From: Candidatus Dormiibacterota bacterium
GTDB lineage: Bacteria > Acidobacteriota > Terriglobia > Acidiferrales > UBA7541
Assembly: GCA_035602385.1 (NCBI GenBank)
Contig: DATNME010000008.1
Location: 19,441 to 83,440 of the forward strand
Direction of reading: 5' to 3'
DNA: 64,000 bases
In this document: piece after piece, positions 40,207 to 60,762 of the stretch
Position numbering within the stretch: the stretch's first letter is position 1
Layout of the letters: each line of letters opens with the position of its first letter
Position numbers and translations under genes: made by a program
The notes under the pieces: generated by a model
Told to the model about the DNA's origin: nothing
Seen by the model: only the letters and a program-made list of their open reading frames with translations
Database searches by the model: none

Positions 40207-40253
40207 CTGTCAATAGTCAAAACAACCAATAAACATGCGCAGTTTCATAGATT

Positions 40254-40293
40254 TTGTACCCAAGTTGTACCCGTATACGCTAGAATGGGTACA
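40254..40293. promoter_or_regulatory. Integrase arm-type binding sites and int promoter region
   Basis: TTGTACCC at 40254 and 40265 (11-bp period), inverted GGGTACA at 40287; TAGAAT at 40281; RBS AGGAGG at ~40297. Confidence 0.55.
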
Positions 40294-40308
40294 GTCAGGA
40301 GGACATCC

Positions 40309-41439
40309 ATGCAACGAGGCGCAATCAAGCAACACGGCAAGTTCTGGGTCCTGAAATTTCGTGAGGACGTGCTCCAGAATGGCTCTCGGGTACGCAAGGA
40401 CGTGTACAAGAAACTTGCTCCCATCGGTCGTGAATACCAAACGAAAGAATCAGTCCAGCCGCTGGCCGATCTGATACTTGCTCCCTTGAACGCTGGCGTG
40501 CATCAAGCCCAGTCTGTGGATACTATCGAATCCTACCTTGAATCTTTTGTTGCTAAGGGCCAAGGCGGCAGTGGCCGCGAACTCCAGCAAAGCACGTTGA
40601 AGAACTATACGGTGATGCTCAACTTAGTTCGACCGCACCTGACACCGATCGAACTGCGGCAGGTTCGGACGCCTTACATCGATAAACTACTCCGGGCGGT
40701 CGCTGCGAACGACGGAGAAAATCGTCGGGCGCATACGACCTACAGGAACTTGAAAAACTTTCTGAGCAGTGCGTTTAAGTTTGCGGTCCGCGACGGTCTG
40801 GTCGAGTTCAACCCGGTCCGCGAAGCAGCTATCCCGGAGGGCGAAGAAGCGGATACGCATGCATATAGCCTGCGGGAAGTACGCACAATTATGGATGGAT
40901 TGAAGAAGCCCATGGCGAAGTCTCTGGTGATGCTGGCGACATTTACGGGCTTGCGGTCGGAGGAGATTAAGGGATTGCGGTGGGATGACTACGAAAACGG
41001 GGTATTAGACATCAAACGGGCTATTTCAGCAGGTAAGGTGGTCGAGCTTAAGACGAAGGCTAGCAAGGCTCCGGTGCCCGTTGTGAAGACCGTCCAGAAG
41101 ACGTTGGCGGCTCACTTAAAACAGAATTCAGGTGACGGCTACATCTTTCACGGCAACACTGGCGAACCTTTGGACTTGGAAAATTTCGCGCAGCGGGATA
41201 TCAAACCAGTACTGGAAAAAGCGGGGGTCGAATGGCACGGCTATCACGCATTCCGCCGTGGCTTGGCCTCGGTTCTCCACGAACTCGGGGTCGCGGAATT
41301 GACCATCAAACACATACTCAGACATTCTGATTCGGACGTCACAAGAAAGCACTACATAAAATCTTCGACCGAAACCAATCGTAAAGCACTTGAACTGGTG
41401 GAGAAACAGTATCTCAAGCAACGACTCAAGCGACGTTAG
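40309..41439 (+). CDS. int: Tyrosine integrase
   Basis: TFTGLRSEE (R), LKTKAS (K), YHAFRR (HxxR), LRHS...KHY (H,Y); N-terminal arm-binding-like KFWVLKFRED. Confidence 0.95.
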   Translation: MQRGAIKQHGKFWVLKFREDVLQNGSRVRKDVYKKLAPIGREYQTKESVQPLADLILAPLNAGVHQAQSVDTIESYLESFVAKGQGGSGRELQQSTLKNYTVMLNLVRPHLTPIELRQVRTPYIDKLLRAVAANDGENRRAHTTYRNLKNFLSSAFKFAVRDGLVEFNPVREAAIPEGEEADTHAYSLREVRTIMDGLKKPMAKSLVMLATFTGLRSEEIKGLRWDDYENGVLDIKRAISAGKVVELKTKASKAPVPVVKTVQKTLAAHLKQNSGDGYIFHGNTGEPLDLENFAQRDIKPVLEKAGVEWHGYHAFRRGLASVLHELGVAELTIKHILRHSDSDVTRKHYIKSSTETNRKALELVEKQYLKQRLKRR

Positions 41440-41710
41440 TCTCCATCCATTTCTCAACATCGGGCAGGCGGAAGCGCAAAAACTTACCGCACTTCAACGC
41501 GGGCATCGGCGGTCTTCCATCTTTGCGCTTACGCTTGCGGGTCAACTCATAGACGGTTGCGGTCGGCACTTGCAATTCTTGGGCGATTTGTTCGGGAGTC
41601 AAAAAATTAGATCTAACGAGTGACAATAGTTGTGGAATCTCTACAGGCTTACGACGGGGCTTTTTGTGGGAAGCAACTTCGGGAACAACAGGGGCATTCT
41701 TTTTCGACAT
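41426..41710 (-). CDS. Excisionase-like HTH DNA-binding protein
   Basis: FLTPEQIAQELQVPTATVYEL...KCGKFLRFRLPDVEKWM; convergent with int. Confidence 0.85.
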   Translation of the reverse strand: MSKKNAPVVPEVASHKKPRRKPVEIPQLLSLVRSNFLTPEQIAQELQVPTATVYELTRKRKRKDGRPPMPALKCGKFLRFRLPDVEKWMETNVA

Positions 41711-42204
41711 TAGACACCAACCGAATTATTTGGATTTCGGAGTGTCTCCGCGATTTGCTTTGACTTTAGAGAAGGCGTCGTGACCGATTACTGCGACGTT
41801 GGCCATCAGCGACTTGGCCCCGGATACGCTTGCCAGACTGGGAAGTCTGACGTATTTGAATCCTCTCATAGTACTGGTACCCTTGTCAAGCCCAAACTTG
41901 AGCCTATGACAGACCAAATTCCAATCACTGACCTAGTGCCAGAAGAGTTGCGAACGGACAACTACCATGCGATTCGAGACAAGATGGAGCGAAACCTTGT
42001 GCTCCCCGAGAAACTACAGCGGTATGCCTTGCACTGATCTACTTTGGATTTCTTACTTCACTCGCAGTGGCCTTCACCCCAAAATTTGACCAGCAAGCAA
42101 GGTGGTTCGCACAGTAGACAATGACGGTCCGCCCCGTCCAAAAATCTGAAAAACGCCGACAGTAGGCATCGGCGCTGTCTCTTCCTGATCAACCAACCCG
42201 TTGC

Positions 42205-42651
42205 TCAGGTATTTGGTTTTTCCACCGGATACACGAGATGTTCCGGGTCCCACCACAGAACTTTCAAAACGTTGTGTTCCATGATTCCGAAGACCCGACT
42301 TTTCTGAGTGATACCCAAGGATATGACTGAATCCACGTCGTCTTGTCCCATCTCACGGAGACGTTTTTGTGCATCGGCGCAAAGCCTATCTCGGCTGACG
42401 AAGTGATTTCTATATCCGGCTTGGCACAAAATCTGCTTCCAAGTCATTGACTCGAAACTTGCGAAGCGTTGCTTCACTTGGAGCAACTCTCCTTGCTCGG
42501 AAGTGTGCCAACCAAAGGGCTCCACTGTCTCAAGCAGCGAGACTCGCCAACAGGGGTACATTTCCTGCCAGTCGTCACGAAACTGACTCTTGGGTGTTTT
42601 GGAAGTATCAACCTTGACTAGGGATTTTGGACCCTTCTGCTTGTTGGTCAC
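42205..42651 (-). CDS. Putative toxin paired with the Panacea antitoxin
   Basis: 4 bp downstream of the Panacea gene; FESMTWKQIL, RVFGIMEHNVLKVLWWDPEH. Confidence 0.6.
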   Translation of the reverse strand: MTNKQKGPKSLVKVDTSKTPKSQFRDDWQEMYPCWRVSLLETVEPFGWHTSEQGELLQVKQRFASFESMTWKQILCQAGYRNHFVSRDRLCADAQKRLREMGQDDVDSVISLGITQKSRVFGIMEHNVLKVLWWDPEHLVYPVEKPNT

Positions 42652-42655
42652 GGTG

Positions 42656-43087
42656 CTATTTGAGGCCGGAGTAGTACTCGACCATCGACGCGAGAGAAAT
42701 CACTCGGTCCCCGCGCTCGTCTGGCTGCATTCCCCTTCGCGCTTCGCGCCACGGTTCTTCCTGATGGGTCCGGTTGCTGAGTTCCTGTGAGGACATATGT
42801 CCGTAGTATTTCAGAACTTGGTCTACCGTTTCTTTTTCCGAAGAGGTGAGGTTCTTGGGATTTCCAATATCCCATTGCCCGACCTTGAAAGCTCCGCGGT
42901 GATACTCATAGAGTTCCCTAACCACGGGGCCGTTGGCCCAAGCTTCAATCTGCTCATTAAACAGAGGAGCATCATCCCACACCAACGACCACGCCTGCGA
43001 GTAGTAAACCAATTTCTGCAACTTCATCGCAGTGATCGGACTGCGCTTGCTGAGAATATAGGCCGCGACGTCGTGTACGTTTGCCAC
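42656..43087 (-). CDS. Panacea (DUF4065/SocA-like) antitoxin
   Basis: MKLQKLVYYSQAW, IEAWANGPVVRELY, LSNRTHQEEPW; upstream TTGACT-N18-TAGCAT promoter-like site. Confidence 0.92.
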   Translation of the reverse strand: MANVHDVAAYILSKRSPITAMKLQKLVYYSQAWSLVWDDAPLFNEQIEAWANGPVVRELYEYHRGAFKVGQWDIGNPKNLTSSEKETVDQVLKYYGHMSSQELSNRTHQEEPWREARRGMQPDERGDRVISLASMVEYYSGLK

Positions 43088-43241
43088 TGAAATTCCTCTT
43101 TGCGTGCGAATGCTAGTTCAGCCACAGGTATACAGTCAAGCACCTAAACGAGTATGTCAATTTGAGAGAGGCGGGGTGTGACTCAAACTGCATGGCGGGG
43201 TTGCACCGCATCTATATGATGCCCCGAAACGATGGTGGGTA

Positions 43242-43502
43242 TCAATAGTGCGAAAGAACAGGGCTACCAGTTCTAGTACTGAGCTCACCAAGAGTTCTTC
43301 TCTCGGGCTTTCGGGTTTCCGTCGCCACTCTTGCCGCTATTTTAGGGGTTTCAGCTTCCTGAGCAGGTTTCCCGGCAGGGACAGTTTCAGCGGCTATCTT
43401 GGTAGCACCGGGCGGAATCAACTTCGAACCTGCTGGAATCTTGCTGGCATCTTGACATGCAATTTCTGTCACTGTGCGGTCTGTTGCCAGATATCGCAGC
43501 AC
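43242..43502 (-). CDS. Hypothetical protein
   Basis: ORF in the co-directional run; no recognised motif. Confidence 0.35.
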   Translation of the reverse strand: MLRYLATDRTVTEIACQDASKIPAGSKLIPPGATKIAAETVPAGKPAQEAETPKIAARVATETRKPERRTLGELSTRTGSPVLSHY

Positions 43503-43551
43503 ATTGACGGCTCGAATCGGTCAATCCAATCGGAGCCATCGCTAAGGGTTG

Positions 43552-44028
43552 TTACTTACGAAGTTCTTGTGGAGTCACCTGCCTCACAACCAGAACGTCG
43601 TTACCACTTTTGATTTCTTCCCGAGTTGCTGGGCGTGTCTTGATGATCGTGCTTGTCAATGCCCGCAAAAGCGCTTTTGCGACGACTTCGCTCGAAGAAG
43701 CTGCGATCAGCTTGTCAACGGTTTCCTGAATGATTTTAGAACTTTTGGATTCCAAAACTTTTGCGTCGTCAATCGTCGACTGCAACTTGGTGGAAACAGA
43801 AGCTTCGACTTTATGAACACGTTCTCCGGTCTCTTCCACCAATCGTCTGGACAAGTCGTAAACGTGATTCGCGTCGTCCAGCACTAGCTTCCGAATTTTC
43901 AGAATTTCTTCGTCCAATTCAGGGAACACAGCGTTGTATAACCGGTCCACTTCTTCCTTCAGTTTCGTTTCTAGTCCTGCGACCTGTGCCTCAACAGCGG
44001 CCAGTCGTGCTTCGAATTGTTCGCTCAT
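43552..44028 (-). CDS. Coiled-coil hypothetical protein
   Basis: RBS GGAG; heptad-rich EARLAAVEAQVAGLETKLKEEV. Confidence 0.65.
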   Translation of the reverse strand: MSEQFEARLAAVEAQVAGLETKLKEEVDRLYNAVFPELDEEILKIRKLVLDDANHVYDLSRRLVEETGERVHKVEASVSTKLQSTIDDAKVLESKSSKIIQETVDKLIAASSSEVVAKALLRALTSTIIKTRPATREEIKSGNDVLVVRQVTPQELRK

Positions 44029-44157
44029 GTTTTTCTCCATCGGCGTCGCCGATTTTTGGGTACCACGTCGATGCCGACGGGTTTGATTTTTGAAATGAAA
44101 AGGCGACACCGAAATGTCGCCCTTTGCTGCGCTGCTGTGGTCGGAATATTGGTTTGG

Positions 44158-44391
44158 TTACACTGAGCGTGTCTTCACATACGCCGCTTTGGCTGCGATT
44201 CTCTTGGCCAGTGTCATCGCGTGATCGACCACTCCGTTGTTGCGAACAATATTGGAGTCTTGAAAAACTTGCTTGGCGGCCTCAGCGGTTTGCACTGCGT
44301 CGATGTGACCGGTCACGGGGTCGTAGATTTCGATATTCACTGCACCGTGGCCGGTGAGAGGGCTTTGGTCAGGGTTTGTAGATTGAGTCAT
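44158..44391 (-). CDS. Hypothetical protein
   Basis: RBS AAGGA; co-directional small ORF. Confidence 0.55.
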   Translation of the reverse strand: MTQSTNPDQSPLTGHGAVNIEIYDPVTGHIDAVQTAEAAKQVFQDSNIVRNNGVVDHAMTLAKRIAAKAAYVKTRSV

Positions 44392-44443
44392 GTGATTTTT
44401 CCTTGGGCGTGTCGCCCGTCTCGGTGCGACCGAGGGTTGAATG

Positions 44444-44629
44444 TTATCGGGAAGTTGATGGAATTACGTTTTGAACCTTCTTGCCGCTGGCGTCTAACGA
44501 GGAGTTCTGCTTGGCAGCTTGTTTAGCTGCTCTATTTTCCTTGTTTTCCAGCGGAAGAGTTGTGACCTTTGACGGTTGGGGCAAATTGCCAATGCGCCGT
44601 GTGGCGGTCTCATTGTTCGTTTTTGTCAT
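44444..44629 (-). CDS. Small basic hypothetical protein
   Basis: Abuts the upstream small ORF (44632-44760, MSSAKEARK...). Confidence 0.4.
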   Translation of the reverse strand: MTKTNNETATRRIGNLPQPSKVTTLPLENKENRAAKQAAKQNSSLDASGKKVQNVIPSTSR

Positions 44630-44839
44630 TGTTATTTTTTCTTCCTGCCCGCAGTTTTCACGGCTGGTCCACTCAACTGGGGATTCTTACCGGCGACCGG
44701 GCGTCGTGCTCCAGAGAACGGCTTGTACTCGCGCTTCCGCGCTTCCTTGGCGCTACTCATGCTACTTCTCCATGTGTCTTGGCGTTGGATACGCCGACGA
44801 CACTTCTGCCCGGTTGAGCCGGGCAAACTCTTTTGAATC

Positions 44840-45469
44840 TTAGAATGTGATGTTCTGACGGCTGCCCTCGAACTTGTCCACCATTTGCTTGGCGACATCG
44901 AGCATCAAGTCATACCTGACCACTCCATTCTTGATAATTGTTTTGGTTTCACGGAGGGCTTGCCTGCGGTTTTTCGTAGTAGCGTAATCAACTCTGCCAC
45001 CGCGATTGACCGTGTAGGTGTTTGCGAGTCGTTCGAATTCTTCCTTGGATTCCGACTGTTCCGCCTGCAAACGACGAATCTTTTCGGTCTCGGCGTTCTT
45101 CGAAGCATCCACGGTTTTTGCTTCTGCGCGATCAAATTCAGTTTTTACCTTGCGCTGGTCGGTCCCGATGAAAGCCTTCACTTCCGCGTCACGCTTTCGC
45201 TTCCGCTCTAATTCGGCCTTGTCTGCCATCTCCCGACGAATAATTGGATGCTCACATCCGGGGAGCCACTTCACACTGTGCAGACACATTTTTAATGCCG
45301 CATCAAGGTTAGGGGGTGTAATTCCGCCCAATTGGCGGCTCATCGTAACCATTAAATTTATAGTTGCCAGGTCCCCGTCGAGTTGGAAATCCTTTTCGTG
45401 CTTTTTGCACCAAGCAAGGATTGTCGTCGACTCATCTACCGAAGTTTTCACTACTGTTGTGTTTGACAT
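44840..45469 (-). CDS. Hypothetical phage protein (KKHxxDF...NLxxA family, scaffold-like)
   Basis: RBS AGGA; shares a motif with 46183-46644. Confidence 0.65.
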   Translation of the reverse strand: MSNTTVVKTSVDESTTILAWCKKHEKDFQLDGDLATINLMVTMSRQLGGITPPNLDAALKMCLHSVKWLPGCEHPIIRREMADKAELERKRKRDAEVKAFIGTDQRKVKTEFDRAEAKTVDASKNAETEKIRRLQAEQSESKEEFERLANTYTVNRGGRVDYATTKNRRQALRETKTIIKNGVVRYDLMLDVAKQMVDKFEGSRQNITF

Positions 45470-45555
45470 TTCCTATTCTTCCTCTCTTCGCCTTTTCAGG
45501 CATAAAAATAGCGACCAAGAAACGGTCGCTCGCACAGCACAGATTGTTTTAGTTT

Positions 45556-46179
45556 CTAACCTTCGGAAAGTCGGTGGTTGATATTGTCCGCGCCATGTAC
45601 CCGAATCAATCGCTTTAAGGTCTCTCGGTCGAGTTGTTTTATCCCGCGAGCATCAAGCTTCACCTTCTCTCCCCGTACGAATATCTTCCCGGGTAATTCT
45701 GGGTAGCCCGGCACCGGCGGTCGACCCGCCTTCACAATTTCCCGGAGTTCTGCGACCGGTTTGTTTTGCAAATTCTGGACGGATTCCAATCTTGCTAGCT
45801 CTTTACGCAGTGCTTCAAGAGTCCAAAACTGCAACAATTTGGAACGGTGACGTACGACGCCCGGCGCGGAAGTCATTCCATCGAGGCACTGACAAATATG
45901 GGTGATAAGCTCGGATTTAATGACTTCGGGCTCCGCGAGAGAAAGAGCTGACGCAAGACCACCGGTCGGGTCGTCTTCTAACAAAAGAGTTATGCGGTCA
46001 AGGGACACTTTTTTAGGAAAACAAGCGGTCTGCATTACGCGGAAGTTGGCCTCTAGGTCCCTTACGATTGGATATTTTCGCAGAATTTTTCCCCATTCGT
46101 TCGCTTCGAATTCGCTGCGTTCTGAAGATTTCGTCTCGATTTCCATCGACGCCATCAACTCACTTAAGCGGAGTGACAT
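45556..46179 (-). CDS. Hypothetical phage protein
   Basis: Tightly packed in the operon; helical, charged. Confidence 0.65.
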   Translation of the reverse strand: MSLRLSELMASMEIETKSSERSEFEANEWGKILRKYPIVRDLEANFRVMQTACFPKKVSLDRITLLLEDDPTGGLASALSLAEPEVIKSELITHICQCLDGMTSAPGVVRHRSKLLQFWTLEALRKELARLESVQNLQNKPVAELREIVKAGRPPVPGYPELPGKIFVRGEKVKLDARGIKQLDRETLKRLIRVHGADNINHRLSEG

Positions 46180-46182
46180 ATT

Positions 46183-46644
46183 TTAATTTCCCCTTCGTAG
46201 GATTTCTTCCACACGTGCTTTCCACAGGTGGCCGTGTTTTCCCCTTACCCATTCCGAATATTGGGGGCACTTCAAAACATCTTTTTTGGTTTTGATATGT
46301 TCCATGTACGGCGGTACGGGAGGCAACTCGTCTTCGACGGTTGCTGCGACTGGTGGAGCTGCTGGCGCTGCGGTAAAAGTCACGCCTTGTTTTCGAAGCT
46401 CGGTAAAAGCAGTCTCCAAATTTTCTCCGTTGAAGTGTAAATTATTCGATTTTAAGTAACTCTCAATCTTTTTTGCGCTCTCAGGACTTTGATCGAAATC
46501 ATGTAAGTGCTTCTTCATAAAAACATAACTGATTTCCTGTCCGCGCAACTTAGCTCTTTCTCTTTGCAGCTCCGTTTGTGTGATCTCCTCTTTCGCTGTT
46601 TCCTCTGCTGCTATTTCTTCTGCTGTCAATTCATGTCGTGCCAT
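46183..46644 (-). CDS. Hypothetical phage protein (scaffold-like: acidic N-terminus, Pro/Ala linker)
   Basis: RBS AAGGAG; FMKKHLHDF...ENLETAFTEL; APAAPPVAA linker. Confidence 0.7.
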   Translation of the reverse strand: MARHELTAEEIAAEETAKEEITQTELQRERAKLRGQEISYVFMKKHLHDFDQSPESAKKIESYLKSNNLHFNGENLETAFTELRKQGVTFTAAPAAPPVAATVEDELPPVPPYMEHIKTKKDVLKCPQYSEWVRGKHGHLWKARVEEILRRGN

Positions 46645-46678
46645 AAAATTCTCCTTCGGCGTTTGTGCGCCTATTTTG

Positions 46679-46990
46679 TTACTCAACTTCGACAATTGCT
46701 TCGACGGCTTCAAACGGGCACGAACTTGTGTCTTTTCTGTTCGGGCGTATTCGGAGTTTGAGTCGGGCGCCGACCCTAACTCTCGCTAAACCGGGCGAGA
46801 CGACGGAGTGATGGACGAAGACTCGGTAGCGCGGGTCGCTCGCGGTTCCATCAAGCCGACAAAATAGATAGCGCTCGTCATCATATTTTAGGACGAAGCC
46901 CGTGTACCAGATTTTCTCGTATTCGTCGGTCCACGTTTCTTCCGTTTCAATTTCCTCAACTTCTTCACCAACCATATTTTTGTTTTCCAT
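46679..46990 (-). CDS. Divergent cold-shock-domain (OB-fold)-like protein
   Basis: YTGFVLKYDDERYLFC...RVFVHHSVV...VRVGARLKL; RNP2-like VFVH. Confidence 0.6.
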   Translation of the reverse strand: MENKNMVGEEVEEIETEETWTDEYEKIWYTGFVLKYDDERYLFCRLDGTASDPRYRVFVHHSVVSPGLARVRVGARLKLRIRPNRKDTSSCPFEAVEAIVEVE

Positions 46991-51717: not shown

Positions 51718-52031
51718 TGCGCACCAGCCAGTGCGTTCGTTGCGCCGACCAACGTCGGGTTTTGAACGAACAGCTCAACATCGATGGCATGTCGGAAATT
51801 GCCCGGACTCGGCGGAACTTCGGAGGCGCGGAAGCGCACGAACATGCCGACCTGAATATTTGTTATATCGACTTCTGAAATGATGAGTCTGGCGATGTGA
51901 AAGAAATATTTTTCGACCGCCATCGTCACATTATTTCTTGTGAAAAGCACACCGCACGTTTTGGCGGGATTGTACGAGCCGACCAAACCTTCTAGCTTCT
52001 CGTTGCTTGTCGCGTTGCTTGTTGTGGTCAT
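51714..52031 (-). CDS. Divergent cold-shock-domain-like protein
   Basis: GLVGSYNPAKTCGVLF...KYFFHI...IQVGMFVRF...AIDVE; ATGA coupling to the primase gene. Confidence 0.65.
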   Translation of the reverse strand: MTTTSNATSNEKLEGLVGSYNPAKTCGVLFTRNNVTMAVEKYFFHIARLIISEVDITNIQVGMFVRFRASEVPPSPGNFRHAIDVELFVQNPTLVGATNALAGAQ

Positions 52032-52158
52032 TGTTAATCTCGACCCCGATTGGGGTTACTACGAGCAACGGCTTTGCCGCTGCTTTTTATTCACCTGCTT
52101 TCTCTTTGGCTTTTCCCAATTGTTGGCGTGATTCTCAGCCGATGCGGGGTTGTGCCAC

Positions 52159-52602
52159 TTACGATTTAAGACTTTGCTCACTGATAGCTTTACGACGTGC
52201 TATTTCTTCGCGCTCGTGTTTAATTTCCAGTTCAAGCCGGAGTTGATGTTCATTCCATGAATTCCGAGCTTCCTTGAATCGGTCAGTGGGAGGAAACTTG
52301 ACTTCGAGTTTTTCGAATTGCTTCGGGTCGATAACGAGCGGACGTGTCGTTAGACGGCCCATCAGCAAAGCGGCCATAAATGCGTAATCAGAGATGGGCC
52401 TTCCGATGAATTGTTCCGCCTCTGTTTTCAAACTTGACGCTGAAATAAAATGATGCCTGCCGTGATTGCGGCACCGACCATGACACTCTTCAATGAAACT
52501 ACGGGCAAGTACGACAGATTCCCAAACGGACAGGGGCTCTGGTCGTGGGACACCGGACAACTTGGGCATCACGCGCTCAACATCACGAAGGTCTGGATAC
52601 AT
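52159..52602 (-). CDS. Hypothetical protein
   Basis: ORF in the operon; C-terminal coiled coil. Confidence 0.55.
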   Translation of the reverse strand: MYPDLRDVERVMPKLSGVPRPEPLSVWESVVLARSFIEECHGRCRNHGRHHFISASSLKTEAEQFIGRPISDYAFMAALLMGRLTTRPLVIDPKQFEKLEVKFPPTDRFKEARNSWNEHQLRLELEIKHEREEIARRKAISEQSLKS

Positions 52603-52721
52603 TGTTGTTGTCCTCGATGAACTTCTGAATATCGATATCCATTCTCTCGGCAACAGCTTGGACGCCATAAGCAGCGGTGATAACAACCAACTCACGTGGC
52701 GTGCAGCGAGATAAAATTTCT

Positions 52722-53084
52722 TTAGTCCAATACTTCGACATTTGTTTGTCCTGTTCTACTATCATGTGCGCTCTTGTCCACGGCTAAAGATTCTCGAAGG
52801 TGCTTTGTGTCGTACTCTACCGCTTGTTTGAAAAGCCTGCGGATACGTAACTGTTCCTTTACATTTTCTGAATCCGACCAAGCTGGTGCGATTGGAGACG
52901 TTTGTTTTAATTCCGCCATCTCGTCAAGGATGGCAACTAATTTATCGATGATGTTCGGGTCCAGCGATTTTTCGTTTTTCAGAAATTGGGTCAACCGAGT
53001 TCGGCCGATAACGCCCGCGATTGGGACAAATAAACTCAGAGGGCAGGCGAGGTCTTGAAGTTTCTTATCGATAATATGCGCCAA
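52722..53084 (-). CDS. XRE-like HTH regulator (paralog 2)
   Basis: RBS GGAGG with TTG start; aligns by eye to 53128-53493. Confidence 0.55.
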   Translation of the reverse strand: MAHIIDKKLQDLACPLSLFVPIAGVIGRTRLTQFLKNEKSLDPNIIDKLVAILDEMAELKQTSPIAPAWSDSENVKEQLRIRRLFKQAVEYDTKHLRESLAVDKSAHDSRTGQTNVEVLD

Positions 53085-53127
53085 TGATTCCTCCGGCTGT
53101 TCGTCTCTTGACGAAGTGTTGCTACCG

Positions 53128-53493
53128 TCATTCCGATTCTTTCTTCCACAATTTTGGATAGTGCCGTCTTAGATATTTTAATTCCTCTCTGATTTTGAAA
53201 TTTGCGCTGACCACCTGCGTAAGGCGTAGAAAAGACTTAAACTTCCCCGCCCGAAATCGCTCCAGTGCAACCGCCAGAAGTTTTGCGTCATGTAGCCCCA
53301 ACGGAATTGGAAAACACTTCTTGAGGTCTTCCAATTCTTGGAGCACAACATCCAGCCGCTTGGCGTCAGGTACTTCTTTGCGACCTTTAAGGAAATTAGA
53401 AAAGGCGGGGGCGGAGATGCCGACCAAAGCAGCAAATTCACCATTCTTGATTCCGAGTTTTTGCACCCTTTGCTTGATGTGTTCATGGAACAT
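53128..53493 (-). CDS. XRE-family HTH regulator (paralog 1)
   Basis: KLGIKNGEFAALVGISAPAFSNFLKG. Confidence 0.8.
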   Translation of the reverse strand: MFHEHIKQRVQKLGIKNGEFAALVGISAPAFSNFLKGRKEVPDAKRLDVVLQELEDLKKCFPIPLGLHDAKLLAVALERFRAGKFKSFLRLTQVVSANFKIREELKYLRRHYPKLWKKESE

Positions 53494-53947
53494 TTGTTCG
53501 CCCCCGATAATAAAAAATTATTATTCCGAATAGTGTTTGAGCCCCCGACCCACCGACCTGCCCGAACTCATGTTCACGAGTTTTAAGCAAAAAATTTTGG
53601 TGAAGATAGAACGGAATTACTCACGTTCCGCCTTCACCAAGGAAGCGAAAAATTTGCGGTCTGGTTTAGTGTGCTTCCCTCATTGTCTGGATTCGCCGTA
53701 TCACTCAAGCGACCCGACAATTAAAAGTTGAACTTTCAAAATCGAATAGGGAGGGGTCGATTCCGCTCTCCTGCTGTACTCCCATAGCGGTTTAGATTAC
53801 GGCACTGATTTTCAATTACATGACAATAAAGGTACTTAGGAGCATTTTTCGACTCAAACGAGGTCGAAGGCTAGTCACTTGAGGAGGATTACCCCCCTCA
53901 TAGGCTCATGGTAAAGTACAGCACTAATTTAACCCTCGGGTCGAGAT

Positions 53948-54087
53948 TAGTCTTCCCAAAGATGTTTAAGTGTGGTCGTTATTTTAATCTGCGGTGGTTT
54001 GCGGAGAGGAATCCTCTCCCATTGGTGGTGCTTATGCGCTGGGCTCGCGACTAGTCTTCCCAAAGATGTTTAAGTGGGGTCGTTATT
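53948..54087. repeat. 36-bp direct repeat pair (one mismatch) in a non-coding mosaic repeat region
   Basis: TAGTCTTCCCAAAGATGTTTAAGTG(T/G)GGTCGTTATT at 53948-53983 and 54052-54087. Confidence 0.92.
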
Positions 54088-54181
54088 AGTCTGTGCGCGA
54101 CTACCACTCCCATTAGTCCATGGCAAACTACAGCACTAGTTTATGCGACGGGCGTCACTTGGGTCGAGAGCGGGGGTCGGT

Positions 54182-54358
54182 TTACTGGATGGATTCTGGT
54201 CGTGCCGGGACGCCCCAGTATTCCAAAATCGTCGCCGCTGATTCTTCCACCAGCTGGGCACGTAGAATTTTTTGTTCGAGGTCGCTGAGCGTACGAATTG
54301 CGGTCACAGCGCGGTCCAAGGAGCGGAGCGTACCTGCGCAGTGGGTGCAACCGTTCAT
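54182..54358 (-). CDS. Small hypothetical protein (CxxC)
   Basis: MNGCTHCAG...; ATGA coupling to the GNAT gene. Confidence 0.5.
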   Translation of the reverse strand: MNGCTHCAGTLRSLDRAVTAIRTLSDLEQKILRAQLVEESAATILEYWGVPARPESIQ

Positions 54359-54813
54359 ACTCCCGCCTTGATGCAGCGTCTGCAGCGGAAGCGACCTCTG
54401 ACGCACGCCCGACCACACACATAACATCGTGGTGCCTGCTGTTCTTTCGCTGGTGATGCGTGCAATTCGTATTCGTACAACCCGGAGAGGGTCTGTGTGA
54501 CAGGCAGCGCCCTCGACAATTTCGCCCAGATGCGAGCCGCATCCGCAGTTAGTTTTTCATCACTTTGAATCTTGGTCGCGCCGATTTTACCGGCGCATTC
54601 GAATATTGCCTTGTACAGCGGCACGCCGTGACCTTGATTACGGAACGTTTTGTTCAACTCCGTTTTATGGATTTGGACGACGGCGGGTTGGTCTGGGATG
54701 ACATCGAATTCTGCGGCACCAGCGAGCACTCCATCGACGAAGAACGCCATCGTAATGCTCTGCTCTTCGGCGAACTGCTCGGGTAAAAATTTGTAAGAGT
54801 ACCTTTGGTTCAT
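54355..54813 (-). CDS. GNAT-family acetyltransferase with C-terminal zinc-finger
   Basis: FRNQGHGVPLYKAI (acetyl-CoA motif A), SDEKLTADAARIW, CYVC...CRRC. Confidence 0.72.
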   Translation of the reverse strand: MNQRYSYKFLPEQFAEEQSITMAFFVDGVLAGAAEFDVIPDQPAVVQIHKTELNKTFRNQGHGVPLYKAIFECAGKIGATKIQSDEKLTADAARIWAKLSRALPVTQTLSGLYEYELHASPAKEQQAPRCYVCGRACVRGRFRCRRCIKAGV

Positions 54814-55262
54814 GATCGGTCTTCCTTGTCGCCGGGGCTGCGCTCCTTGGGCTCGTCCGCTTTGATGTTCGTGCGCAGGTCGAACTCGGTCGGAGCATCT
54901 TTGTTCAACCGGAGACTTTGCTCCACGGATTCCCCCGTAGACTGCTGCGGTACGACCGGCTCCTTGAAACGAACCAGATTCGCTTCCACCCAAATCATTG
55001 CCGTTCGTTCGAAAGGACCCAAACCGCCGTCGCCGGGTTCCACTAATAAGTGACCGTCCCGGGCGTCCAAAATAAAAACTTCCAAAAGACCGGCGCGGTC
55101 GATGAGCTTTTTAAGTTCGCCCGGTTGCGCCGAGATAGGCGGTGTGACAGCGTCGATGGCGCGACGGATAAGCTCCGCCGTCTTGACGCCGGTACGTGCG
55201 GACTGGGCGTCGAGGCGGGCGATTAATTCATCCGTCAAAAATATGGTCGTTCTTTTCACCAT
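54810..55262 (-). CDS. Ribbon-helix-helix (CopG-like) regulator with C-terminal extension
   Basis: MVKRTTIFLTDELIARLDAQSARTGVKTAELIRRAID; RBS AGGAG. Confidence 0.85.
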   Translation of the reverse strand: MVKRTTIFLTDELIARLDAQSARTGVKTAELIRRAIDAVTPPISAQPGELKKLIDRAGLLEVFILDARDGHLLVEPGDGGLGPFERTAMIWVEANLVRFKEPVVPQQSTGESVEQSLRLNKDAPTEFDLRTNIKADEPKERSPGDKEDRS

Positions 55263-55335: not shown

Positions 55336-55469
55336 AACGTATACACCGGCACAAACGTATACACCAGACGGCACGCCTTCCAAATCAATTTGTCCAAGCG
55401 GTGTATACACCCGGCGAAACGTATACACCTACGCTGGAGGTCCTCTCAGTCTGGGATGATGTATACACT
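55336..55469. repeat. Array of five GTATACAC boxes (operator-like)
   Basis: AACGTATACACC at 55336, 55354, 55418; GGTGTATACACC at 55400; GATGTATACACT at 55458. Confidence 0.85.
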
Positions 55470-55698
55470 AGAAGCCCTTGGGGGGCCCGTAGGAGCTGTC
55501 AAAATGGCCGAGGGTGAAATCAGGCGTACCGAGCTAGGAAGGACGCGCCAGCGGGCTGGAAAGCCGGTTGGCGGGTAGGTTGGTGGGAGTTCAGATCGGT
55601 AACGGCGGGCGTAACTTCGAAGATCGGACCTAACCGACGCAAAAATATGGTGTCAAAAGACCCGCCAATTTCACTTGAAAAAATTGCACTTTTCAAGT

Positions 55699-56077
55699 CG
55701 TACTGCCAAAACCTACCCCGTACTGACAAAACCTCGGGGCCCGCCACTCGCGGAGAGGTTCTGGAGGTTTTGTCAGTTGTCAGTGGGGGCCTCGTTTTTG
55801 AATTTATTCCTTCACAAGTAAAAAATAGGTTTTGGCAGTACGTGAAAGCGCGTTTTTTGACCTTTTTTACTAACTCGTTTATTTTGTTATAGATGATGTT
55901 TTTGATTTGATACATTCACATGGTACCCCGTACTGCCAAAACCCTAAACCCCCCCCCTCCACTTGAGGAGCCCGGTTTGGGGGGTAACTGCCAAAACCTA
56001 TTTGACTGTTTTTGGGGTCTAGAGCAGTTTTCGGGGTTTTCGAGTATTTTTGCATCGATCAGGGAGGTTTTGGCAGT
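55699..56077. repeat. Iteron-like array, putative replication origin
   Basis: Seven copies of ACTG(C/A)CAAAACC in both orientations around an AT-rich core (~55843-55925). Confidence 0.7.
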
Positions 56078-56559: not shown

Positions 56560-56865
56560 GACATTCTTTGAAAATGCCTCATTCACTCGGACAGGCGTCA
56601 CAACAGGCATACGTTCCATTTGTCCGACAGCGTAACCGAAGGTATCACATTGAGTTGTCCGACACTTGCTGTCAGGCTACGCGCCTGCAGCACCCCGCTT
56701 CAAGGCTCGCCAACAGGTCCGCATTGGCACGCACGAGCCCACCAGCGGCACGTTTCACCCGTTTTTGACTCTCACGCCCACTCACAGAATAATACACTAT
56801 CTCAAAGAATGTCCTTTTGACTCTCACGCCCACTCACAGAATAATACACTATCTCAAAGAATGTC
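56560..56865. promoter_or_regulatory. Segment bounded by 12-bp inverted repeats and containing promoter-like sites (candidate invertible switch)
   Basis: GACATTCTTTGA (56560-56571) versus TCAAAGAATGTC (56802-56813 and 56854-56865). Confidence 0.5.
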
Positions 56866-56866
56866 C
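56763..56866 (+). repeat. Perfect 52-bp tandem duplication containing TTGACT-N17-AATAAT
   Basis: TTTTGACTCTCACGCCCACTCACAGAATAATACACTATCTCAAAGAATGTCC twice. Confidence 0.92.
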
Positions 56867-56948
56867 TTGACGCGTTCATAAGATCATGAGAGCATCAAAG
56901 CAATCAGTTACTGGAAGACCAACCTCAAATTCATTTGGAGGAGAATCG

Positions 56949-57521
56949 ATGAGCGAACTGCAAGGACTGAACCCAACAGAGCGAAACAAGCTACTGGCAG
57001 CCGTCACAGACCCGCGAGACTTGGCGATCATCGTTCTCGGGCTTCGCCATGGTTTCCGTTCGAGTGAGATTGCAGACTTGAAGATGTCTGACGTTGACTT
57101 AATCAACAATCTGATTCGCATCCGCAGAGGCAAGGGTAGCGAAACAAACGACCACACGATAGAAGACGGATTGGAGGCATTGAATGAGCGTACCGTGCTC
57201 CTAAACGCGCTGGCAGCACGTCCTGTAGACAACAGCCCTTACGTCTTCGTTTCACAAAAGGGCGGCAAGCTTCATCGTTCGCAAATATTCCGTATCTTCC
57301 AGCAAGCCGCAACGAAGGCTGGATTACCCCGCCAGAAGCGCCACTATCACTGTGCAAAGCACACTGGCGCATTCAGCATGTTGAAGTCCGGCGCATCGGT
57401 TGCGGAGGTACAAAAATATTTTGGTTGGAAGAGTCTGGCAACGGTCGGAAGATACCTCGCAGTCAGCGACGAGACCGCGTGCAAAGCAGCCCGGAAGATG
57501 TTTGCCGTGGAGGCCGCATGA
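56949..57521 (+). CDS. FimB/FimE-like short tyrosine recombinase
   Basis: 190 aa, catalytic domain only; HGFRSSEI, RRGKGS, YVFVSQKG, HYHCAKHT, KYFGW, GRY; RBS GGAGGAG. Confidence 0.85.
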   Translation: MSELQGLNPTERNKLLAAVTDPRDLAIIVLGLRHGFRSSEIADLKMSDVDLINNLIRIRRGKGSETNDHTIEDGLEALNERTVLLNALAARPVDNSPYVFVSQKGGKLHRSQIFRIFQQAATKAGLPRQKRHYHCAKHTGAFSMLKSGASVAEVQKYFGWKSLATVGRYLAVSDETACKAARKMFAVEAA

Positions 57522-57727
57522 AGAAGAGTCCGAACAAAGGACAGCTAGATCAACCGAAAGGTCAGTCACAAGAACAGCGGCCGCCACGTCGCTCAACAAT
57601 CGATTTCGATGCTGAGTTGTACAACCGAATCAAGGCGATAGCAGACCGCGATGAGCGTGACTTTGGCTCGCAGGTTCGTTTCATTTGCAAGCAGTGGTTG
57701 GAACAACAGCCGAAGGAAGCAGCATGA
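57518..57727 (+). CDS. Arc/RHH-like DNA-binding protein
   Basis: RRSTIDFDAELYNRIKAIADRDERDFGSQVRFIC; ATGA coupling to the recombinase gene. Confidence 0.7.
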   Translation: MKKSPNKGQLDQPKGQSQEQRPPRRSTIDFDAELYNRIKAIADRDERDFGSQVRFICKQWLEQQPKEAA

Positions 57728-58033
57728 TGGGAAAGAAGAACACGACCGGTCACTTCGTTGTGGAGACATCGACCCCGACGAGAATCCTCTCGACGCGGAA
57801 CTGGAAGCAGGGCTGCCGAAAGAATATGTAATCGAACATCCAATGGCATGCAAACGCTTTGGTTTACCCACGGTGAGCAAACCGAAACACGAGGGACGAG
57901 GAGGCGTAACTGTTGGTTGCGCTGTCGGAGACCACGGAGGCCAAGAATGTATCAGTGCTTTCCTCGGTGAAACCAATTGGTCGCGCAGCAAGGTCGGCAG
58001 GGTTATCGAAGCAAGTGAAAAGAAGAGAGACAG

Positions 58034-58795
58034 ATGACAAAGAAAATCTGGACCGCCAGCATGATGGGCAAACGCGGCATTAAAAAGATGCTGGAGAAGT
58101 TCGATCAGGACCCAGTCAAAGCGCGGATGAAAATCGCCAAACAATCCATCGCAGTGACCCGTCACCGAGATAGAACATCTTCGCTATGCTCTGCGCTCCG
58201 TTTGGGTCACCGCAGCGGACAAAGATTCAATGCTGCCCGAGGACTACCGCGAACGCACCGCGCTTCAGCGCAGTCTGGCGAGAAAGTTGGGGGTCAAGTG
58301 ATGGACAAGAAAAAGCTGGAACGGTTGGAGCGCAAGGTTACACGTCGGGACGCACAAGTAGCCGTTCGCAACATAAAGACCGCGAGGTCAGAAAACCCAC
58401 TCGTGCTCGATGCCGAAGTCATTGGCGGAGGCATCATGCATAGGAAGCTCGTGAAAATGTCGGTGATGACCAACGAAAACCACACAGTGTGTTCAGAGAT
58501 TCGATTAGTCACGGAGCCAAAACCGCAACCGAGTCTACAGCAGAGAGCCGAAATCCTCGCGAAGACGGTACCGACATTCGGCTCAATGGAGAATTGCCGG
58601 AGAAACGTCGCGGAGTGCTGGAACATTGGCGATGCGCCAGTAGTCGAAAACGTCGACGAACTCTTCGATTCGGCATTATCTGCGCTCGGCTACGAGTCGG
58701 CGAAGCAGTCGTTCGATTTGTTTCGAAACCGCACGTTAGGAGAACCGAAGAAGCCGTCCGTTTGGAACCGCGACATTCTGAGGAGGACACGATGA
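58034..58795 (+). CDS. Hypothetical phage protein (may be two fused ORFs)
   Basis: ATGA overlaps on both sides; internal ATG near 58301. Confidence 0.5.
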   Translation: MTKKIWTASMMGKRGIKKMLEKFDQDPVKARMKIAKQSIAVTRHRDRTSSLCSALRLGHRSGQRFNAARGLPRTHRASAQSGEKVGGQVMDKKKLERLERKVTRRDAQVAVRNIKTARSENPLVLDAEVIGGGIMHRKLVKMSVMTNENHTVCSEIRLVTEPKPQPSLQQRAEILAKTVPTFGSMENCRRNVAECWNIGDAPVVENVDELFDSALSALGYESAKQSFDLFRNRTLGEPKKPSVWNRDILRRTR

Positions 58796-59085
58796 GGTTG
58801 AAAAAAGAGTATGGACCATCGCACGGGAGAGAAATGATTCGCGCTCTGACCGAAGCGGCACAGCAAATCAAGCGCGAGGAATTGGTGAAAACACTTCCAC
58901 TGAACTACACGTTGCGATACCTCTACTGCAACGGCATTTTGCCGACCGTCCGCAACTATCTTGCTTTGGAATATATGAGCGATGTTTCGGGCTTAGAAGA
59001 TGTCGGGCCGGAAGACCGCACTGAGATTGAAAGGCTCATTGAAGATGGTTTTCTTGTGGATACAAAATCGGAACGCGTGAATTAG
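58792..59085 (+). CDS. Hypothetical phage protein
   Basis: RBS AGGAGG; ATGA coupling. Confidence 0.6.
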   Translation: MRLKKEYGPSHGREMIRALTEAAQQIKREELVKTLPLNYTLRYLYCNGILPTVRNYLALEYMSDVSGLEDVGPEDRTEIERLIEDGFLVDTKSERVN

Positions 59086-59127
59086 GAAACACGGCAGCCG
59101 CCCTCGGGTAGAAAGCAGATGTGAGAA

Positions 59128-59403
59128 GTGGGAATAAATCGCAGAGCTTTTATTCATCAAATAGCGGTCGGTGCAACAGCAGCGGCTTTGGTGCAATTTG
59201 TGCCGATGGCGGAAGACGATTACTCCCGATTCCTCCGGACGTTGGGCGGCCGCGTGAGACACATATTATGCAGAGACAAAACGACGTTCAAAAGAATGCA
59301 AATTGATCCACCCGAGTATTTTGGCGGGGAACGCTTTCGGTTCGTCCGATTGTATATTGAAGAACACCAGAATCCATTTACGTGGTTTCACCCCGAGGCA
59401 TAA
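59128..59403 (+). CDS. Small protein with twin-arginine-like N-terminus
   Basis: MGINRRAFIHQIAVGATAAALVQF. Confidence 0.5.
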   Translation: MGINRRAFIHQIAVGATAAALVQFVPMAEDDYSRFLRTLGGRVRHILCRDKTTFKRMQIDPPEYFGGERFRFVRLYIEEHQNPFTWFHPEA

Positions 59404-59582
59404 ATCAACATCAGGAGACGAAAAGTGTTTGTAATTATTTCGAGTAGCGGCGCAGTTCGCAAAGTCTTCCAAGGCACCGACCCGGAGACGATTATCGAGT
59501 TGGCCTGCGAACTGCGTTGCGAGAACGACGCCAACTACCAAAGACGCATCGCGGAAGCGAGGCGACTGCTACAGGAGGACCT

Positions 59583-59810
59583 ATGCTCGTGAAATTTCAG
59601 CGACCGATGTCGGAGGAGGAGAGAACGCGGCTACACATCGACGCAATGTGGTTGCTATTCCTCCGCACGCCCGCGAGAGCTACGGGACCCGGCGAACCCA
59701 TTGATCTTGGCGAGATAGGAGCTGCGCCTGAGCGCAACTGGAGCAAGGCGACGCCATACTCCCCCGCGACGGCGAAGCTGCAAGAACCGACAGATAAGAG
59801 GCGTGAATGA
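59583..59810 (+). CDS. Hypothetical phage protein
   Basis: RBS AGGAGG; coupled to the next ORF. Confidence 0.5.
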   Translation: MLVKFQRPMSEEERTRLHIDAMWLLFLRTPARATGPGEPIDLGEIGAAPERNWSKATPYSPATAKLQEPTDKRRE

Positions 59811-60178
59811 CATTCGACACAACAAATCAATGGGTGCGACACATGCTCCACGTCTATAACAATCGCCGCCACGATGGAGAGATTTGGCTTGCGGTGCAGC
59901 GACCGGAGCCCGTAGTTTTGCCGTACCTTCCGGTGTATGTAGTCGAATTAAACGATTGCCCCAACGGCGCGGACGTGCTCGGCGAAGTCAGAACGAGACT
60001 AGTTGACGGCACGTTCATTCACGATATCGTGCCGGTGCAGCAACGTTCGGAGGAAGAGTCTCGACTCCTGCGGCAACAAGTGGAAGAGCATAAGAAGCGT
60101 CGAGCCAATTTGTATAAAGGTTATTCAATTGAAGAGCGGTTGAGAGATTTGCAAAACCCGGCAGAAAAGCAGATATAG
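59807..60178 (+). CDS. Hypothetical phage protein
   Basis: ATGA coupling; compact ORF. Confidence 0.55.
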   Translation: MTFDTTNQWVRHMLHVYNNRRHDGEIWLAVQRPEPVVLPYLPVYVVELNDCPNGADVLGEVRTRLVDGTFIHDIVPVQQRSEEESRLLRQQVEEHKKRRANLYKGYSIEERLRDLQNPAEKQI

Positions 60179-60205
60179 CCGCACCAGCGACAGACAGGAT
60201 TAGCA

Positions 60206-60433
60206 GTGCAGACGATTCAAGATTTGGTTTTCATGCAAAAAGTTGGTATTCGCATTGACGCGGACGACTTTGCCAAAGTTCTGGTGGCTGAGAACACGCA
60301 CCGAGATTTCTCGGCGTGTTTCGGATGCTGCGCAATAACTCAGGAGCAGCATCAACCATCGTGCCCACGATCAAGTGTGCTCTTCGAAGCAGATTGGTTC
60401 GAGATCGTTCGCGCCTGGGATGCGAATCGATGA
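60206..60433 (+). CDS. Hypothetical phage protein (Cys-containing)
   Basis: FSACFGCC...PSCPR. Confidence 0.45.
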   Translation: MQTIQDLVFMQKVGIRIDADDFAKVLVAENTHRDFSACFGCCAITQEQHQPSCPRSSVLFEADWFEIVRAWDANR

Positions 60434-60606
60434 ACCGTAGGACGTTGTTGGTCCTTCGTGATAGCACAACAGTTTGTGAAGCTGACTGCAGACCGAGATT
60501 GCTTAAATAGTCGGATTCAGAGGCGACCACATGTTTTGTCCGGTCAGACCGGAAGATTATCGTTGTTCCCGCTGCCACGGATGGCGAATTTTTGTCTTCA
60601 ACAAGG

Positions 60607-60762
60607 ATGATTTTCGAAGCCGACGCAATCCTCCGCTGTACTAAGTGCGAACGGGAAGACATCAAGGCGTGGATGCTGCTCGACTACGGCCCAAACTCCA
60701 GCATCCAGTTTTTGGCGGGCACGGCAACATGCCGTCGAAACCGTGTCCACACCCGCTCGTAG
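60607..60762 (+). CDS. Small CxxC protein
   Basis: Manual translation MIFEADAILRCTKCEREDIKAW...TRS*; AAGG upstream. Confidence 0.35.
   Translation: MIFEADAILRCTKCEREDIKAWMLLDYGPNSSIQFLAGTATCRRNRVHTRS

Follow-up and report, generated by a model that had tools for sequence, protein, structure and literature searches.

A terminase-bearing, capsid-less integrative element family of soil Acidobacteriota, candidate satellites of podophages

The DNA analysed here, a 64,000-nt stretch of contig DATNME010000008.1 (assembly GCA_035602385.1) referred to below as the window, originates from the soil metagenome ERR1700687 (PRJEB8420). From position 40207 rightward it carries an integrative element that encodes its own large terminase subunit (TerL) and no recognisable portal, capsid or tail protein. 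An earlier reading made without database searches (the sequence-only reading) had listed for this element an integrase with an excisionase-type protein, a Prim-Pol/DUF3987 replication protein, an iteron array, a complete TerL, two toxin-antitoxin (TA)-like modules and a second recombinase. All of these were located between 40207 and 60433 by analysis of open reading frames (ORFs) with Pfam and PHROGs (Table 1). From left to right, the integrase and HTH_17 genes are followed by the first TA-like pair, two poorly conserved genes (p185 and p209), two tandem paralogs (p207 and p176), a small gene (p103), TerL, the primase-helicase fusion and a block of early/regulatory genes. Beyond a non-coding stretch lie the second TA-like pair, the iterons and a short recombinase gene that heads a coupled operon. 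The element very probably represents a conserved family of capsid-less, TerL-bearing integrative elements of soil Acidobacteriota, and on balance we lean towards seeing in it a helper-dependent satellite of Acidobacteriota podophages which would use its own terminase to package itself into helper procapsids.

The left end of the element is defined to the nucleotide. A 3-kb contig from the sister sample ERR1700737 (L105), 99.8% identical to the host flank of the window, represents the empty site: it contains an intact tRNA-Arg(CCT) gene followed by a Ser/Thr kinase gene, the close homologs of this flanking kinase being named Candidatus Acidiferrum (Terriglobia). Its homology with the window ends exactly at 40206, inside the tRNA-Arg(CCT) gene, and 40207 is therefore the true insertion junction, in exact agreement with the start coordinate proposed earlier. 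The tRNA gene was left broken by the insertion and was not regenerated, and ARAGORN called no tRNA at 40166 to 40206. The junction 40206/40207 is also spanned by an independent assembly, a 19.7-kb Logan contig, in which element and chromosome have the same depth of ~13x, indicating that in this sample a single copy of the element sits integrated and quiescent in the chromosome. Since the site is empty in the sister population, the insertion is polymorphic.

TerL is made up, in order, of an N-terminal extension of ~135 residues, an ATPase, an RNase H-like nuclease and a C-terminal tail. Its AlphaFold model (pLDDT 83) has a disordered basic N terminus, a confidently predicted helical domain at residues 56 to 110, the ATPase and nuclease, and a disordered C-terminal tail; the best Foldseek matches are the large terminases of PhiV-1, T4, HK97, Sf6, D6E and T7 (8dgc_E, 3cpe, 6z6d, 4iee). 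In an alignment of 30 homologs, the Walker A-like motif ASRxxYKS (R232/K236/S237), the Walker B residues D339/D340 and the nuclease residues D501/E564/D647 are invariant or nearly so; the Walker A motif lacks the usual glycine (Y235), a deviant yet conserved feature. The Walker A/B ATPase and the RNase H-like nuclease with its acidic triad, which characterise the TerL family, are both present, and the description of the protein as a complete TerL holds in that it is full length, has its catalytic residues intact and is modelled with a terminase fold.

The N-terminal extension, a basic tail plus a small helical domain, is specific to the element family, the first ~135 to 165 positions having no counterpart in phage TerLs. 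Residues 1 to 225 used as a query retrieved 109 representative clusters from a collection of 1.84 billion proteins, the complete ones of ~690 to 880 aa and the rest fragments. Some homologs have CxxC pairs in the extension. We also considered whether it is a fused copy of the putative small terminase subunit (TerS; family F17) of related phages; this is not detectably so. The C-terminal tail comprises a helix and an FG motif, along with a spacer rich in Pro and a short basic/hydrophobic end; this architecture is common to the TerLs of the elements and of the phages. In T7, lambda and P22, the TerL C terminus is the part that docks on the portal. One sub-clade of relatives carries in addition a stand-alone TerL nuclease-domain paralog of 195 to 270 aa, which lies upstream of the full TerL or separately from it (L039, 4355-4942; L047, 1168-1773; L048, 6720-7325; L052, 3479-4117; L053, 5127-5939; L069, 193-819).

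In a neighbour-joining tree, phage TerLs from IMG/VR form the outgroup and the elements one large clade, with the TerL of a single phage contig, L028, nested inside it. This topology indicates that the terminase was captured from, and perhaps exchanged with, a podophage lineage. The distant IMG/VR relatives are 21 to 30% identical over the best aligned segment, measure ~590 to 760 aa when complete and lack the first ~100 to 250 residues of the element protein. The closest TerL from a cultured phage is that of the Acidobacteriota phage Tunturi_3 of Tunturiibacter (23.5% identity).

The search for virion genes gave a uniformly negative result. None of the 31 ORFs encodes a recognisable portal, capsid, tail or lysin in Pfam or PHROGs, nor were there matches in these libraries to Psu, Sid or delta; no TerS is recognisable in the element. 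We rely also on profiles of the portal (F7, F37) and major capsid protein (MCP; F12) of the related phages, which matched nothing in 79 element loci or in the interval 36001-71173, numbered as a continuation of the window. Their sole match was L028, a genuine phage. The largest unannotated ORF between TerL and the integrase in the window has 209 aa, and in a compact relative (L065) the distance between these two genes is 3.7 kb. Some relatives carry further genes like those of helper head modules (F11-like, F16-like), never a portal or MCP gene. The earlier statement that portal, major capsid, tail and lysin are missing is thereby borne out by the general libraries and by the lineage-specific profiles alike; over 36001-71173 the genes of a complete virion are lacking, and the 31 kb from the left junction contain no head, tail or lysis module such as an intact prophage would have.

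In the phage contigs with related TerLs, the terminase gene is followed by genes for a 690-aa protein, a product of ~100 to 109 aa, a protein of ~265 aa (family F1) and a 345-aa protein, and then by further structural genes. The 690-aa protein is the portal (phrog_1216; PF23899 SU10_portal in L103) and the 345-aa protein, matched by phrog_1357 (2.2e-8 with the copy in L103, which shares 86% identity with the one in L093), is the major head protein; an SU10_adaptor gene lies behind it. From this order, portal, small gene, F1 and MCP, it follows that F1 sits at the place of the scaffold in a podophage head module. The element proteins p176 and p207 match the C-terminal half of the phage F1 protein: a phage-F1 profile detects p176 with an E value of 1.1e-11, and with a p176-type profile the E values are 1e-18 to 1e-21 for the phage F1 proteins and 6e-6 for p207. 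Alignment A4 shows what they have in common, namely a small domain of helices, a linker rich in Pro and a helical unit at the C terminus. The AlphaFold model of a phage F1 protein (pLDDT 71.5) is made of helices, three short ones of them at the C terminus, and a disordered Pro-rich linker at 197 to 230, and is compatible with a scaffold. We therefore regard p176 and p207 as putative scaffold-like modifiers of capsid assembly; the label "scaffold-like" used previously gains substance from their homology to a phage protein whose gene lies between those for portal and MCP. The domain is multiplied in the elements, with two copies in the window and up to four elsewhere, vs one F1 gene in the phages.

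The genes for p176 and p207 share a reading frame, with the stop codon and a single additional codon between them. In four relatives, the start codon of the second F1 gene comes right after the stop of the first. This layout suggests translational coupling, or possibly read-through. The idea that the in-frame stop marks a pseudogene was rejected, the two-gene arrangement being kept in L013, L018, L019, L022 and L066.

Homologs of TerL number 40 in a collection of 5.8 billion proteins, 30-odd of them full length, with complete ones at ~720 to 810 aa. A scan of genome contigs found one locus, in an Acidobacteria metagenome-assembled genome, and a scan of metagenomes 80 loci. ORFs were called and clustered into families in all loci, relatives being examined within 10 kb on either side of TerL. 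In 64 metagenomic loci a full-length TerL with the N-terminal extension is present and a portal is not. A recurrent gene order emerges: the short recombinase F2 together with a group of small genes, the regulators F9, F27, F30 and F5, the primase-helicase (F4/F13), TerL, a small gene (F3, F43 or F54), one to four F1-domain genes, variable genes and the large integrase. Counted each time over those of the 64 loci with enough flank, an F1-domain gene lies at most 3 kb downstream of TerL in 38 of 40, a primase-helicase lies at most 3.5 kb upstream in 22 of 33, F2 is found in 16 of 20 (loci with 8 kb or more of sequence upstream of TerL), and the large integrase lies downstream of TerL in 9 of 13. 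The integrase adjoins an intact tRNA gene in seven relatives (Ser in five, Glu and Arg in one each). Six relatives with intact tRNAs showed no attachment (att) repeat of at least 12 nt within the fetched loci, and these elements must consequently extend more than ~14 to 19 kb on that side. OLD-like AAA_15/AAA_21 ATPases are also found among the relatives. The sequence-only reading had asked for homologous elements with the same gene order, and these exist in dozens of loci; its leaning away from a decayed prophage finds backing in the recurrence of the capsid-less layout in dozens of relatives, whose TerLs are 30 to 61% identical and have intact catalytic motifs.

The right end is less clear. 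Position 60762, put forward initially as the boundary, does not stand: the last conserved element gene (p123, family F41) ends at 60178 and its coupled operon at 60433, and no right attachment site appears up to window-equivalent 71173, the point to which the contig (L001) was read rightward. The search covered direct repeats, junction k-mers against the window plus 7 kb, and scans for T-arm and acceptor motifs; the 3' half of the tRNA-Arg gene (AGGTCGGGAGTTCGAGCCTCCCCAGCCCCACCA) and any repeat of the junction core are absent throughout. The stretch past the RHS gene holds DUF72, YuaX-like and protease-like genes and neither tRNA nor structural genes, so that the head and tail genes which might have lain beyond the RHS gene are not there in the 10 kb past 60762. 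Its G+C content is 0.508, vs 0.506 in the element and 0.542 in the host. No ortholog of the kinase expected at the right junction is recorded for the source contig in the protein database, and the 98% kinase match, L108, has a different upstream context. What was inserted is thus probably a low-G+C island of more than 31 kb that includes the RHS gene, unless the right end was lost by rearrangement in this copy; the right attachment site may thus be gone from the window copy.

An RHS toxin gene with a small downstream gene also stands at the recombinase-side end of two relatives (L005, 1-1649; L017, 1-2000). The tRNA on the integrase side is Arg-CCT in the window and Ser-GGA in L017, and the recurrence of RHS at the same end of elements sitting at different tRNAs indicates that it may be cargo instead of a chance neighbour. 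In the window, the RHS gene is probably carried as cargo within the one inserted island, and the 105-aa gene downstream of it presumably encodes the immunity protein.

The interpretation as a satellite is built on the combination of tRNA integration, replication genes, an intact TerL, a multiplied scaffold domain and the lack of portal, coat and tail genes. The element has integration and replication functions of its own, namely Int, the HTH_17 protein, the PrimPol-DUF3987 fusion, the iterons and an insertion documented against an empty site. The lifestyle itself is a matter of inference, and we give it somewhat better than even odds. On infection by a helper phage, or on induction, the element would excise and replicate from the iteron origin. 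TerL would then recognise element DNA, its basic tail and helical N-terminal domain taking the place of a small terminase subunit, perhaps with help from the OB-like protein p103. Its C-terminal tail, to judge from the retained architecture, would dock on the portal of procapsids made from helper proteins, the helper being a podophage of ~42 kb with an SU10-type portal, and the docked motor would fill the procapsid with element DNA. Proteins p176 and p207 would bind the helper coat protein and either resize the capsid or displace the helper scaffold, thereby favouring assembly for the element. The TA pairs, and probably the RHS toxin, would be cargo or maintenance genes. The operon of the short recombinase is a conserved second recombination module that might act in multimer resolution or as an alternative integrase.

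Several observations weigh against this reading. Neither a helper phage nor direct, virion-fraction evidence of encapsidation was found; no family member turned up in IMG/VR; and no excision joint or excised form was detected, the depth of the element being equal to that of the chromosome. In the relatives, which were examined within 10 kb on either side of TerL, structural genes may lie farther out. No relative of the TerL N-terminal domain could be detected in PDB or Pfam, which makes a role of this domain in DNA recognition a guess. For F1, searches with Foldseek and against PDB sequences and sequence libraries returned nothing informative and matched no solved scaffold, so we infer its scaffold function from gene position and architecture. 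Finally, with the right att site missing within 31 kb and the neighbouring kinase not recorded on the source contig, the window copy may be immobile.

The same anatomy could belong to an interference or defence island that is not transduced at all, in which TerL and the scaffold paralogs act as decoys that poison podophage packaging and assembly, to the benefit of the host population, and which spreads by other means or only vertically. The TA pairs of the element and the OLD-like ATPases of its relatives would suit such a role, as would the lack of any sign of excision or packaging and of a recognisable right attachment site in this copy. Against it, a decoy needs neither invariant ATPase and nuclease residues across homologs that have diverged to 30 to 60% identity, nor a primase-helicase, an iteron origin and an integrase beside tRNAs at different loci; moreover, known satellites both interfere and are transduced, making this more a sub-case than an alternative. 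We consider it unlikely, though worth keeping in mind. A further possibility is that TerL serves the element's own DNA metabolism, for example by processing concatemers or in a step akin to transposition, and has nothing to do with virions. The terminase gene does lie directly downstream of the primase-helicase, with a gap of 25 nt, and stand-alone nuclease-domain paralogs exist in some relatives. That paralogs of a phage head-assembly gene follow TerL in nearly all loci with enough flank, that the tail architecture of phage terminases is kept and that the closest structural matches are packaging terminases all speak for a packaging function, and this is, in our judgement, the least probable of the explanations weighed here.

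Two other explanations hold that the missing structural genes were once there or are still there. A podophage-type prophage could have lost portal, capsid and tail by deletion, with the rest decaying: TerL and the scaffold domain are of podophage descent, phage L028 nests in the TerL clade of the elements, and the window copy has a broken tRNA gene and no detectable right attachment site. For the family as a whole we disfavour this and rate it very improbable; the window copy on its own may be a stranded one. Dozens of loci whose TerLs are only 30 to 61% identical have one gene set and order in common, all without portal and MCP; all have the family-specific TerL extension, together with an expanded set of scaffold paralogs, neither seen in the phages; and the ORFs are intact and coupled. 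Independent, identical decay is implausible. Alternatively, the element could be an autonomous temperate virus whose capsid genes escaped recognition or are placed over 10 kb away from TerL, past 71173 or beyond the fetched flanks of the relatives. The island is longer than 31 kb with its far end unread, many of its ORFs are unannotated, and coverage of these soil phages in the libraries is poor, the phage MCP F12 having been missed once. We nonetheless think it improbable. The portal and MCP profiles of the related phages find nothing in the 79 element loci or in 36001-71173; in the window, the unannotated ORFs between TerL and the integrase reach at most the 209 aa already mentioned, and the conserved ones are the helical scaffold-domain paralogs; the 3.7 kb of L065 is the whole of its interval between the two genes; and the other 22 kb beside TerL are taken up by replication genes, TA pairs, a recombinase, RHS, DUF72 and a protease-like gene.

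Among known satellites, the phage-inducible chromosomal islands that form capsids (cf-PICIs) are among the closest. They encode an integrase, an AlpA-type regulator, a primase-replicase and a TerL of their own, which makes packaging independent of the helper terminase, and the SatelliteFinder scheme uses terL as their marker; capsid, portal and connectors are encoded as well (PMC10085698). The element shares with them integration (at tRNAs or elsewhere in the chromosome), TerL, integrase, AlpA-type regulator and primase. It differs in that cf-PICIs add a major capsid protein, portal, protease, head-tail adaptor/connector, TerS and HNH protein and take only tails from the helper, whereas the element has TerL with a novel N-terminal extension but no MCP, portal, connector or recognisable TerS. 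Classical PICIs, such as the Staphylococcus aureus pathogenicity islands (SaPIs), and P4 resemble the element in layout, with int, xis/alpA, pri-rep and origin preceding a module that interferes with morphogenesis, and remodel helper capsids with an internal or external scaffold of their own (CpmB, Sid; summarised in PMC10690885). They rely on TerS or cos together with the helper TerL and are typically smaller than the at least 20 kb of conserved content of the element. The element has int, HTH_17 and pri-rep as a classical PICI does, yet encodes a full TerL, which also sets it apart from P4, as does the lack of matches to Psu, Sid and delta. The Streptomyces satellites MiniFlayer and MulchRoom encode TerS, TerL, portal, MCP, scaffold and head-tail adaptor and have no replication genes (PMC10690885); large terminase and scaffolding protein are thus common ground, and otherwise the element is the reverse, with replication genes and no portal or capsid. 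VEIMEs carry TerS homologs and motor-like ATPases (10.1101/2022.07.26.501625), and EPIPs TerS, scaffold and MCP (PMC12822802). Full-text literature searches found no element with TerL and scaffold but without portal and capsid; in agreement with the earlier note, TerL occurs in the satellite literature searched only together with portal and capsid.

The SU10-portal-type podophages of soil Acidobacteriota (uncultured; L088-L098, L103, L028) are the lineage from which TerL (26 to 38% identity over the best aligned segment) and the scaffold-position domain derive. They share the architecture of the TerL C-terminal tail with the elements and are the candidate helpers. Their TerL, of ~590 to 760 aa, lacks the extension and is followed by portal, F11, one F1 gene, MCP and tail genes, and the fetched parts contain no integrase-primase module. 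L028 (VFSW01006683.1) is a genuine phage contig with tRNA genes, a 711-aa TerL 38% identical to that of the window, portal, F11 and a 469-aa F1 protein, and is the best available model for the helper lineage.

Whether these elements amount to a new satellite class, intermediate between PICIs and cf-PICIs, is a question on which we stop a little short of even odds. Such a class would bring its own packaging motor, a TerL with built-in DNA recognition and no separate TerS, together with expanded scaffold paralogs, and take portal, coat and tail from a podophage; it would be the first satellite family to be described from Acidobacteriota and may ferry RHS toxins. If so, a foreign terminase on a helper portal would be an undocumented point of hijack, as opposed to reprogramming through TerS or making a head of one's own. 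The elements would then offer a natural system for terminase-portal compatibility, for DNA recognition by TerL without a small subunit and for capsid reshaping by duplicated scaffold domains. They would also constitute a route of horizontal transfer in Acidobacteriota, including for RHS toxins and TA or defence cargo. To our knowledge, very few phages are known from this abundant and poorly tractable soil phylum. Profiles for the TerL and the scaffold domain would in that case supply what satellite finders now lack.

Table 1. Features of the element and its borders (window coordinates; values after family names are E values)
Feature	Position	Strand	Evidence or remark
tRNA-Arg(CCT), 5' part (acceptor stem to 3' side of anticodon stem)	40166-40206	+	sequence read; host side of left junction
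Large tyrosine integrase, 384 aa	40285-41439	+	Phage_integrase 9.6e-15; phrog_1 2.3e-48
HTH_17 (AlpA/excisionase-type) DNA-binding protein	41426-41710	-	PF12728 2.5e-7; phrog_66 'excisionase and transcriptional regulator' 5.9e-8
TA-like pair 1, 148-aa partner	42205-42651	-	weak: phrog_8366 2.4e-6, PADLOC NsnC 3.2e-5
TA-like pair 1, SocA_Panacea antitoxin-domain protein	42656-43087	-	PF13274 6.3e-21; phrog_1281 4e-41
p185 (43552-44109), p209 (44840-45469)	43552-45469	-	charged, probably helical, poorly conserved
p207 (45556-46179), p176 (46183-46713), tandem paralogs, F1 domain	45556-46713	-	reciprocal profile matches with phage F1
p103, small protein, family F43, directly downstream of TerL	46679-46990	-	F43 profile 2.4e-28
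TerL, 733 aa	47091-49292	-	phrog_38 6.9e-30; Terminase_6C
Prim-Pol + DUF3987 helicase-type fusion, 799 aa	49318-51717	-	PF09250 1.2e-17; PF13148 1.7e-56; phrog_2373, phrog_1156
Early/regulatory genes p105 (F5, CSD-like?), p178, p120 (F30), HTH protein of 121 aa (F9)	51714-53493	-	
Two 49-nt direct repeats	53935-53983, 54039-54087	.	104 nt apart, with 90% identity; located upstream of HTH gene in non-coding stretch of 850 nt
TA-like pair 2, GNAT acetyltransferase, 152 aa on source contig	54355-54813	-	Acetyltransf_1 4.6e-5
TA-like pair 2, RHH antitoxin	54810-55262	-	RHH_3 7.9e-8
27-nt repeats containing GTATACACC, upstream of RHH gene	55339-55429	.	putatively operator-like
Iteron array, ACTGCCAAAACC x7, both strands, around AT-rich stretch	55702-56077	.	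candidate origin
Perfect 52-nt tandem duplication upstream of short recombinase	56763-56866	.	copy number uncertain
Short tyrosine recombinase, catalytic domain only, family F2	56886-57521	+	PF00589 9.3e-28
Seven-gene coupled operon after recombinase (69, 244, 97, 55, 75, 123, 75 aa)	57518-60433	+	
RHS toxin gene (1853 aa, from 61185 to window-equivalent 66746) + 105-aa downstream gene	60856-64000	-	

The remaining features of the locus concern replication, regulation and accessory functions. The iteron motif ACTGCCAAAACC occurs in seven copies, none of them elsewhere in the 64 kb, vs 0.43 expected, and in none of 100 shuffled sequences was the number of seven reached; the array is a candidate replication origin. 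Just upstream of the primase, families F5, F9 and F30 are kept in 19 to 22 loci, and the HTH protein (53128-53493) has weak repressor-type PHROG matches. The repeat-bearing non-coding stretch at 53500-54180 may serve in regulation or as a pac site; an Rfam scan of 36 to 64 kb gave no match. The position of p103 behind TerL is kept in L013 and L018; the protein has no Pfam or PHROGs match and could be a DNA-binding partner of TerL. It and p105 (51714-52031) look like paralogous CSD/OB-like proteins, both being matched by profile F50; for p105, the homolog in L004 gives a weak match to CSD in Pfam.

No Pfam, PHROG or PADLOC match above noise was found for p185 and p209, nor any match to the family profiles; with homologs in at most two loci, they are treated as variable accessory genes. 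The short recombinase measures 190 aa, from 56949, as called on the source contig, and has homologs of 35 to 37% identity in L004, L005 and L006. The seven-gene operon behind it has no Pfam, PHROG or PADLOC match, and its gene p123 (59807-60178) stands at the same end of relatives L013 and L049.

The source contig in the European Nucleotide Archive (ERZ923641, k127_751336) measures 183,858 bp, and the window matches roughly 25.5 to 89.5 kb of it. That contig has a 53-nt duplication at 53566-53623 that is absent from the window, and the 52-nt duplication at 56763-56866 is present in both. Separate 58-nt Logan unitigs of higher depth exist at both places, and the two tandem repeats may accordingly be loops of the assembly graph. 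The sole complete tRNA gene in the window, tRNA-Pro(TGG) at 17671-17747, is unrelated to the element.

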